DNA from: Escherichia coli
GTDB lineage: Bacteria > Pseudomonadota > Gammaproteobacteria > Enterobacterales > Enterobacteriaceae
Reading direction: 5' to 3' (one strand)
Length of the DNA stretch: 64,000 bases
Assembly (NCBI RefSeq): GCF_024223415.1
Contig: NZ_CP100500.1
Shown: positions 31,400-36,955 of the stretch, piece after piece
Position numbering within the stretch: the stretch's first letter is position 1
Layout of the letters: each line of letters opens with the position of its first letter
Position numbers and translations under genes: made by a program
The notes under the pieces: generated by a model
The model's database searches: none
The model's input: only the letters and a program-made list of their open reading frames with translations
Told to the model about the DNA's origin: nothing

Positions 31400-32405
31400 A
31401 TAATCAGGTTGAGAGGACATCATAAGGCAAGTAGATTAACGGCAGATACTTTCCCGCAACCACGGGCAAGTATTTAATTATCCATGATGAAATATGACCT
31501 AAATTGTTTTTTGCCCGCCGGAAAGCGGGCATTTTTTTATTCTTTTGTGGTTATGGGGTCATCAGGAACCACGTGCAGATTATATTTTTGTTTTTTTGGC
31601 GTTCCTCCGGCAGCAACGAGTTCATCAATAAGACACTGACACGCCTGAACATCCCGGGCATGTCTTAGTTTCACCTTTATTGATTTAACCTTATCCTCAC
31701 CGGAGGAGAAATGCAGTTCAATCTCAATATCGTTTCTTCGGAACAATCTCATACGCCCCCCTGAATATATCAGAAATGCTAGTATCGAAAAATGAGAAAA
31801 CAGTTAGACAGGAGAAACATATTAACACAAATCATTTATACCTATAGATGAAATTATAATTTCATTCATGAATATGATAGATAACTATATTGTGAACAAA
31901 ATGAAAAATGGCTAAATTAAAAATGGGCATGGAGGAATGCCTCGTAATCAGTAATACATGATCCATACTTCCTTGTTTTGCCCGCCGGAAAGCGGGCATT
32001 TTTTTGGCGGTTACCATCGCCTCACCTTCCTGGTTCACACAAAGCAACCCTGATTTTCCATGAAAACTTCAGGGTTGAGCCAAAAGCACAAAGACAGTAG
32101 ATTAACCAAGGGTACCCGCCACCTGCCAACAGGAACGGTATCCAGTACGTATTAATGACTGACAATTCACATTGCTGTTTTGCCCGCCAGAAGGTGGGCA
32201 TTTTTTTGGCAGTTATCATGGACGCACCTTCATGACACATATTAAGCAGACCTGATTTTTCCATGAAAAATTCATGGTTGAGACAAAAGCACAAAAACAG
32301 TAGATTAACCACGGGTGCCTGCCACCTGACAACAGGAAGGGGTGTCCATTATCCATGATATACAAACGAAAAGTCTTGTCTTTTGCCCGCCGTTGCGCGG
32401 GCTTT
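31400..32405 (+). repeat. array of four related modules, each a promoter-like TTGAGA/TTGTGA-N17-TAGATT/TAAATT plus an intrinsic terminator (GCCCGCC...GCGGGC + T-run)
   Basis: Terminator hairpins at about 31512, 31978, 32181 and 32384; units 32000-32200 and 32200-32405 are about 200-bp paralogues sharing sequence with the unit just after ogr. Confidence 0.6.
31537..31752 (-). CDS. hypothetical small protein (71 aa) inside the repeat/att region
   Basis: ORF with weak G-rich Shine-Dalgarno; may be a remnant. Confidence 0.25.
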   Translation of the reverse strand: MRLFRRNDIEIELHFSSGEDKVKSIKVKLRHARDVQACQCLIDELVAAGGTPKKQKYNLHVVPDDPITTKE

Positions 32406-32440
32406 TTTTTTGCCACCCTCACCAGTGAGGGTACCATCAT

Positions 32441-32659
32441 TCAGAGGCGCGTAAGCCACCCGGCGTTAACATCCTGCCCGTCAACCCTGACCGCAGAGTC
32501 TGAACGGCAGGCACCGGAAGCAGTACCAAAAACACCTCTGACAAGTTCCGCCACCTTCCCGATATCATCAGGCGCCACATTCCTCACCTCGACAGTGATC
32601 CGTGGCGTACCATCATCGTTAACAAGCGTGGCTTTAAGGCTGGTACGACGGGCAAATAA
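32441..32659 (-). CDS. hypothetical small protein (72 aa)
   Basis: GGGAGGGGG Shine-Dalgarno before ATG; followed by a bidirectional terminator around 32722-32755. Confidence 0.35.
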   Translation of the reverse strand, partial: LFARRTSLKATLVNDDGTPRITVEVRNVAPDDIGKVAELVRGVFGTASGACRSDSAVRVDGQDVNAGWLTRL

Positions 32660-32819
32660 CATCAACACCCCCTCCCTTCGGTTCGTTGCACTGGCAGCAC
32701 GATACCACCAGGAAAAAGAAAAGCCCACAACGTCAGGATTGCGGGCTTTTTTTCTTCAAAAATGGACACTACGTGGACACTGATTAAATAATCCTTTCTT
32801 AATCAGACTGTTAAAATGC

Positions 32820-32850
32820 TTGACCTTCCCCTTGCTGGAAGGTTTAACCT
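32820..32850 (+). promoter_or_regulatory. copA promoter with CueR (MerR-type) operator dyad
   Basis: CTTGACCTTCCCCTTGCTGGAAGGTTTAACC: -35 TTGACC, inverted repeat CCTTCC...GGAAGG in a long spacer, as known for PcopA. Confidence 0.7.
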
Positions 32851-32889
32851 TTATCACAGCCAGTCAAAACTGTCTTAAAGGAGTGTTTT

Positions 32890-35524: not shown

Positions 35525-35772
35525 TGAACTGCACCCCAAATGTTGGACATAATCTGACATCTGAAGGTGCAGTTTATGAAACATTCATTTGAAGTAAAAC
35601 TGCCGCTGTAAATCATTACCTGGCCGGTCATGCAGGCATCATTTCTACGGCAAAACTCTTTCAACTTTCTCACACCAGCCTCTCACACTGGATTAATCTT
35701 TTTCTTCTTCACGGTCCTCAGGCACTGGATTGCAGACACAAGCGTAGCTATTCTCCTGAAGATAAACTTTGC

Positions 35773-36096
35773 GTGGTTCTTTATGCTCTCGGGCATTCTG
35801 AGTCTCTACCCCGGGTAGCTGCCCGGTTTAACATTCCCAGCCACAACATGGTTAAAAACTGGATAAAAGGCTACCGCAAATCTGGTAATGAGGCCTTTAT
35901 CAGGCGCAGGAAGGAGAAAAGCATGACCCGTTCTGATGATACCCATGAAAACGAGGCAAACATGACGCCGGAAGAGATGAAGAATGAGCTGCGTTATCTT
36001 CGCGCAGAAAATGCATATCTGAAAGCCATGCAGGAGCATCTCCTGGAAAAAAAGCGCCAGGAGCTGGAGAAAAAACGAAAGTCATCCAGAGCCTGA
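35773..36096 (+). pseudogene. IS3-family orfA (HTH/leucine-zipper part); N-terminus out of frame
   Basis: MKHSFEVKLPL (35586) stops before ...HYLAGHAGI... continues in another frame, consistent with a frameshift. Confidence 0.45.
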
Positions 36097-36200
36097 AGTG
36101 CGGACACTGCCAGTCTGACCTGTTAAAGGCTGCAGGGCTGGCCAGAAGCACGCTGTACTACCAGCTGTCACTGCAGAAGGCTAAGGACAAGTATGCTGAT

Positions 36201-36955
<755 letters not shown>

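Follow-up and report, generated by a model that had tools for sequence, protein, structure and literature searches.

Between an array of repeat units and the copA promoter, in a 64,000-nucleotide stretch of Escherichia coli DNA (the window), lies a short open reading frame on the minus strand. Its position raises two questions: whether this DNA belongs to the host or to a phage, and whether the frame is, or has been, a gene. The open reading frame itself is real and is on the minus strand, as originally predicted, but its predicted extent (32441-32659, 72 codons) misses the ATG; the frame comprises 73 codons (32441-32662) and is called ORF73 here (Table 1). Its product would be a protein of 73 aa, 7.8 kDa and pI 8.0, with the sequence MLFARRTSLKATLVNDDGTPRITVEVRNVAPDDIGKVAELVRGVFGTASGACRSDSAVRVDGQDVNAGWLTRL, in which the hydrophobic stretches are too short for a signal peptide or a membrane span. 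In E. coli strain GF60, which is 100% identical to the window across 32420-32800, exactly the same CDS is annotated by RefSeq as the hypothetical protein WP_029400554.1; in 23 genomes, an intact ORF73 is present and not annotated by RefSeq.

To place ORF73 relative to host DNA, we compared the copA-glsA region of K-12 with the window by BLAST. Homology to K-12 begins exactly at position 32819, with no K-12 match to the left of it, so that ORF73 is not a fragment of the K-12 glsA-copA region; glsA, ybaT and cueR were not found within the window by BLAST. The DNA that carries ORF73 is a P2-family (Xuanwuvirus/P88-like) prophage inserted in the glsA-copA spacer, and ORF73 lies 157 bp inside its right end. 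This prophage occupies the same position in GF60; there, the far end of the prophage carries a tyrosine integrase and a C repressor, followed by intact glsA and ybaT, and the intact glsA is thus found approximately 35 kb from ORF73, past the other prophage end and outside the window. The suggestion that ORF73 stands in place of the gene divergent from copA was therefore misleading; the accompanying remark that it is not a glutaminase was correct. Moreover, attL and attR share a 20-bp core and jointly restore the entire K-12 glsA-copA spacer. Since the whole spacer is accounted for in this way, ORF73 is almost certainly phage cargo and not host DNA left over from the integration target.

The boundary between phage and host is compact. 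The core CTTGACCTTCCCCTTGCTGG is made up of two promoter elements, the -35 box of copA and the left half of the CueR dyad. The terminator at 32712-32757, whose hairpin pairing is preserved in the other allele of this segment (described below), sits between the ORF73 cassette and the phage attachment arm. In this arm, the putative IHF site was recognized by its likeness to the IHF consensus. The TGGACAC repeats fit the arm-site consensus of P2-type integrases, tgTGGaCa (PMC3448106). Because of these repeats and the IHF-like site, the segment from the terminator to the core looks like a normal P2-type attachment arm.

Table 1. Features in and around ORF73 (window coordinates)
Feature	Position	Strand	Details
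Intrinsic terminator of last repeat unit	32385-32411	+	Convergent with ORF73; T-run on plus strand only
3' hairpin ACCCUCACUGGUGAGGGU	32415-32432	-	8 nt past stop codon; without U-tract; kept in all alleles
ORF73	32441-32662	-	ATG 32662-32660, TGA 32443-32441; 73 codons
Small leader hairpin	32663-32688	-	SD in loop; stem CAACG/UGUUG, identical in both alleles
Shine-Dalgarno sequence (SD) GGGAGGGGG	32668-32676	-	Other allele GGGAGGGGA
Leader hairpin 2	32691-32711	-	9 bp; stable only as minus-strand RNA
Bidirectional intrinsic terminator	32712-32757		A-tract, hairpin 32723-32746, T-tract
Direct repeats, TGGACAC x2	32763-32780		11 bp apart; putative Int arm sites; conserved in L002
IHF-like site AATCAGACTGTTA (WATCARNNNNTTR)	32801-32813		Putative
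att core, attR copy, CTTGACCTTCCCCTTGCTGG	32819-32838		20 bp; start of host DNA

The insertion also alters the surroundings of the copA promoter, and may thereby affect copper regulation. At attR (window 32819-32889), the full copA promoter and the CueR dyad are rebuilt, and the DNA upstream of the -35 box is now that of the phage; at attL (positions 11257-11276 of L004), the -35 box and half of the operator are kept and are directed into the 3' end of int. The best promoter-like match of the region (plus strand, 32763-32792; TGGACA-18-AATAAT, 10 of 12 positions) overlaps the putative Int arm repeats and faces copA from a position just upstream of the gene's native promoter. The copA attachment site is occupied in only 5 of 5426 complete E. 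coli genomes. The anatomy is thus that of a P2-family prophage whose attachment core is the copA -35 and CueR box and which restores the promoter at attR. The analysis also removes a possible misreading, in which the divergent neighbor of copA would have been replaced or truncated.

We found ORF73 with its flanks in 28 of the 5426 complete E. coli genomes, as two alleles. In 5 of the 28, it is at copA, with at least 99.7% identity; in the other 23 (approximately 91% identity), it is found in a related prophage, at the end nearest to ogr, and this prophage has zapB as its neighbor in SCU-115, the strain inspected. A third site for the cassette, beside serS and likewise at the ogr-proximal prophage end, occurs in draft assemblies. 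The claim that ORF73 is prophage-end cargo is thus borne out by the presence of the cassette in prophages at zapB and serS, as well as by the start of K-12 homology at 32819 and the core common to attL and attR. Homology between the copies stops approximately 27 bp short of the att core, as expected if their integration modules differ.

Searches beyond these genomes added almost nothing. Neither tblastn nor blastn yielded a match to it among 50,697 phage records and 72,556 plasmids, and representatives of 100,044 species contained none when their genomes were scanned with a degenerate 10-codon pattern. A single, identical contig was present in IMG/VR, and a metagenome scan found two contigs with the zapB-type allele; thus, the IMG/VR, metagenome and genome scans yielded the same two alleles only and no other species. 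The nearest sequenced phages are Xuanwuvirus/P88-like and are 75% identical over the interval from D to ogr, and they carry other genes past ogr, one of them a hok-like toxin. Since the nearest phages differ in the genes that follow ogr and the segment itself had no match, phages of this group have, on these comparisons, a slot for variable cargo between ogr and the attachment site. The GC content of ORF73 is 53-59%, that of the DNA directly to its right 36-43% and that of the repeat units to its left about 39-41%. ORF73 matches a prophage moron or accessory cassette in three respects: it is inside a prophage, is absent from related phages and has a base composition unlike that of its neighbors.

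Several other features of this neighborhood are described here in their own right. The repeat array (plus strand, 31407-32410) consists of three units, each with a promoter-like box, GGTTGAGA-N17-TAGATTAAC, at 31407, 32073 and 32276, and a strong terminator, TTTTGCCCGCC..GGGCATTTTTTT, approximately 100 nt after the box; a fourth copy of the terminator is at 31976-32005. Each unit folds into a stem-loop at its 5' end, an AU-rich single-stranded stretch and the terminator, and in this the units resemble Hfq-type sRNAs; we found no Rfam family match for them. They are unannotated and are present in 2-8 copies per genome, in the same approximately 30 E. coli genomes as ORF73. Just past ogr is an ORF of 71 aa (minus strand, 31537-31752), a RefSeq hypothetical, which matches only the C-terminal half of phrog_14142 (residues 72-127 of 128; E = 5e-12) and looks from this partial match like a truncated phage gene. 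On the host side, a 1431-bp insertion relative to K-12 (35525-36955) lies just downstream of copA; it carries ORFs of 107 and 240 aa in overlapping frames that resemble an IS3-family transposase pair, is flanked by a 4-bp overlap in K-12 coordinates, and lies in a stretch where the window and GF60 are not alike. Outside the window, in the GF60 sequence (L004 1-8501), ybaT is followed by a TolC-family gene, where K-12 has cueR, and by a gene of approximately 20.6 kb for a giant protein with Ig-like domains.

We searched for relatives of the ORF73 protein at several levels. There was no significant match among the Pfam, NCBIfam, PHROGs and PADLOC profiles. A word-indexed search of 5.8 billion protein clusters returned only four clusters, all of them ORF73's own family, and an exhaustive HMMER search of 1.84 billion representatives returned this family and two repeat-protein artifacts. 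One of these was an FG-GAP repeat protein, for which the E value of 1e-30 is the sum of 20 weak matches to an LNPDGTP... repeat; the other was an artificial-looking 86-aa tandem repeat. We also rejected a candidate match to a fragment of the P2 major capsid protein gpN (PF05125/phrog_70), which scored E = 0.18 and 11.3 bits, compared to a cut-off of 27 (also E = 0.25); the match of ORF73 to the prophage's own gpN is just 8 residues long. A sequence search of the PDB and a Foldseek search against the PDB gave no match to ORF73, with no fold below E = 0.3. The AlphaFold2 model, made from an alignment of three sequences, has a mean pLDDT of 56 and a pTM of 0.39, and only residues 7-45 reach approximately 70. 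We found no literature on this element. Thus, homologs exist within the family of ORF73 itself and were not found beyond it in protein, profile, phage, plasmid or PDB searches, and ORF73 is, as judged from these searches, an uncharacterized strict orphan with relatives in a few E. coli prophages only.

We then examined ORF73 for signals of coding, using codon-usage log-odds trained on copA and on 13 long prophage ORFs that were assumed to be genes from their size and P2-like order. The frame of ORF73 scored 0.126 per codon, more than any of the other five frames and more than 127 of 129 open shadow ORFs (of at least 60 codons); among real-gene windows, this score reaches only the 8th percentile, and ogr, a real gene, scored 0.028. 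Moreover, GC at the first codon position exceeds that at the second and third. ORF73 is indeed preceded by GGGAGGGGG, as originally predicted (located at 32676-32668), which ends 5 nt 5' of the ATG and has its GGAGG core at a distance of 8 nt from this codon. The sequence GGAGG is found 4-10 nt before only 17 of the 2005 ATGs in the window; 12 such ATGs open frames of at least 73 codons, and 11 of these 12 start ORFs in the gene-dense part of the prophage or, in one case, the host gene ybaP. Both alleles keep the ORF73 frame open at 7% divergence. In leader hairpin 2, all four substitutions between the alleles keep the pairing (one double change from G-C to A-U, and two via wobble pairs), and the opposite strand of the leader has no equivalent folding. 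ORF73 thus has both frame-specific codon usage and a ribosome-binding site, and its codon usage, its SD and its conserved leader hairpins together favor a coding sequence.

The arrangement of terminators and promoters differs from that of a self-contained gene. The bidirectional terminator that was predicted to follow ORF73 does so in plus-strand order only; the sole true bidirectional terminator, at 32712-32757, is upstream in the sense of the ORF. On the ORF73 strand, no U-tract follows the hairpin at 32415-32432 or the terminator at 32385-32411, and the latter is not canonical on this strand. We found no sigma-70-like promoter on the minus strand at the scanner's threshold (32660-32830), and the sole extended -10-like motif, TGGTATCGT (32699-32707), has lost its key A in the other allele. 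ORF73 is not, by these features, an autonomous unit with its own promoter and terminator.

We compared the two alleles for evidence of selection on the protein. Within ORF73, they differ by 15 substitutions, distributed 6/4/5 by codon position, with a dN/dS of 0.67, and this pattern is indistinguishable from that in the other five frames of the same segment. In contrast, the controls from the same genome pair had a dN/dS of 0.11 (gpD; 12/7/48) and 0.06 (tail tube). For ORF73, an omega of 0.2 or less was rejected (P = 0.019) and neutrality was not, although with two alleles only the power is limited; purifying selection on the protein was not detected in this two-allele comparison. Single-base frameshift alleles also exist. 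Two of them may be errors, since their assemblies are error-prone and also split lolA, rarA or serS; the third is a deletion within a T5 run. From this pattern of substitutions, we conclude that the ORF73 protein is under little or no purifying selection and evolves in a near-neutral manner. With selection so weak, ORF73 would be an accessory factor that is either lineage-specific and evolving fast or in decay.

We considered that ORF73 might have no function at all, being a once-coding relic or a chance frame in a GC-rich spacer, without a promoter of its own or effective translation, in a segment that owes its persistence to hitch-hiking between repeat array and att arm. The near-neutral substitutions, which are unlike those in gpD and the tail tube gene, are consistent with this idea, as are the frameshift alleles, the lack of a promoter, the orphan status of the protein and the low confidence of its structure model. 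Furthermore, the opposite strand bears an ORF of 142 codons that runs across two terminators; thus, long chance frames do arise here, and the open frame of ORF73 by itself is not beyond chance. However, a relic or chance frame accounts poorly for a codon score above 98% of open shadow ORFs, for a strong SD at the right spacing in both alleles, for pair-preserving changes that maintain the leader hairpins on the ORF73 strand, or for a frame that both diverged alleles keep open. We regard a frame without function as a serious contender, one that falls somewhat short of an even chance.

A second alternative is that the segment works as an RNA or a cis-acting element, either as the far end of the C-int transcript, with an effect on the stability of int mRNA, or as an antisense to the sRNA-like units. 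By geometry, circularization would place the terminator and leader hairpins downstream of int, on the other side of attP; moreover, the hairpins are conserved with compensatory changes, and there are zero substitutions between the alleles in the last 85 nt of the ORF region and the 3' hairpin. Nevertheless, the body of ORF73 does not fold more stably than expected (minus strand, z = -1.9; plus strand, z = -0.8), no Rfam match was above chance (sub-threshold, terminator-driven matches only), no special complementarity with the sRNA-like units was found, and a role as RNA would leave the frame-specific codon bias and the SD unexplained. We consider such a role improbable.

To a third idea, raised in the original prediction, that the segment remains from the host's integration target, as a piece of either glsA or the spacer between glsA and copA, we give practically no credence: its location beside the copA promoter is the one point in its favor, and it is refuted by the full recovery of the K-12 spacer from attL and attR, by the intact glsA beyond attL in GF60, and by the absence of the segment from 5398 of the 5426 E. 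coli genomes and its movement with the prophage to zapB and serS.

Thus, the reading that we prefer is that ORF73 is an insulated cargo ORF of the prophage, and probably a weakly constrained or decaying accessory gene. It lies in the variable region of a P2-family prophage between the late-gene activator ogr and the attachment site; an IHF-like site, a bidirectional terminator and two Int arm repeats of the P2 type part it from the core, and the whole cassette moves with related prophages to other chromosomal sites. On this account, ORF73 would be a moron, a small accessory gene that codes for a protein or did so until recently; its product would be a soluble cytoplasmic protein of 7.8 kDa, predicted to form a beta-hairpin and a helix and to be poorly ordered in its C-terminal third, and its structured leader would show the strong SD in a hairpin loop. 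Since there is no sigma-70 promoter between the terminator and ORF73, its transcripts would most likely come from read-through of the terminator at 32712-32757. In the circular phage genome, the geometry puts ORF73 on the far side of attP from the C-int operon, downstream of it and in the same direction; for this reason, any expression, which we infer to be low, is more plausible in an infecting or excised phage genome than in a lysogen.

Whether ORF73 is translated into a protein that does anything is, in our judgment, evenly balanced. We think it unlikely that it is a functional, fast-diversifying phage protein, for instance an anti-defense or host-modulating one, that is made by read-through only in the circular genome and silenced by integration. 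If it is translated, it would be a clean case of a very young or fast-evolving phage gene without relatives, of use to studies of gene birth and decay rather than a new kind of system. ORF73 is one more lineage-restricted hypothetical ORF of a prophage cargo region, and is already in RefSeq.

Three known systems come closest to ORF73. The RefSeq entry WP_029400554.1 is identical to it in sequence and coordinates, and is a database entry only, with no function, family or experiment attached. The sib/tI element of lambda lies across attP from int, with its linkage to int set by the state of integration; similarly, the terminator, leader hairpins and ORF73 are downstream of int in the circle and at the opposite end in the prophage. 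Unlike sib/tI, the element here contains an SD-led ORF and shows no sign of an RNase III-type structure, and the likeness is one of position only. The third comparison is with the accessory cargo of P2-family phages, such as the hok-like and hypothetical genes that follow ogr in Xuanwuvirus P88_4B11. In contrast to this cargo, ORF73 has no recognizable promoter and no homology to described cargo genes, and, unlike P2-family morons, its protein has no detectable purifying selection. Like this cargo, however, ORF73 is absent from related phages, is small, has a distinct GC content, is bounded by terminators and lies between ogr and attP.
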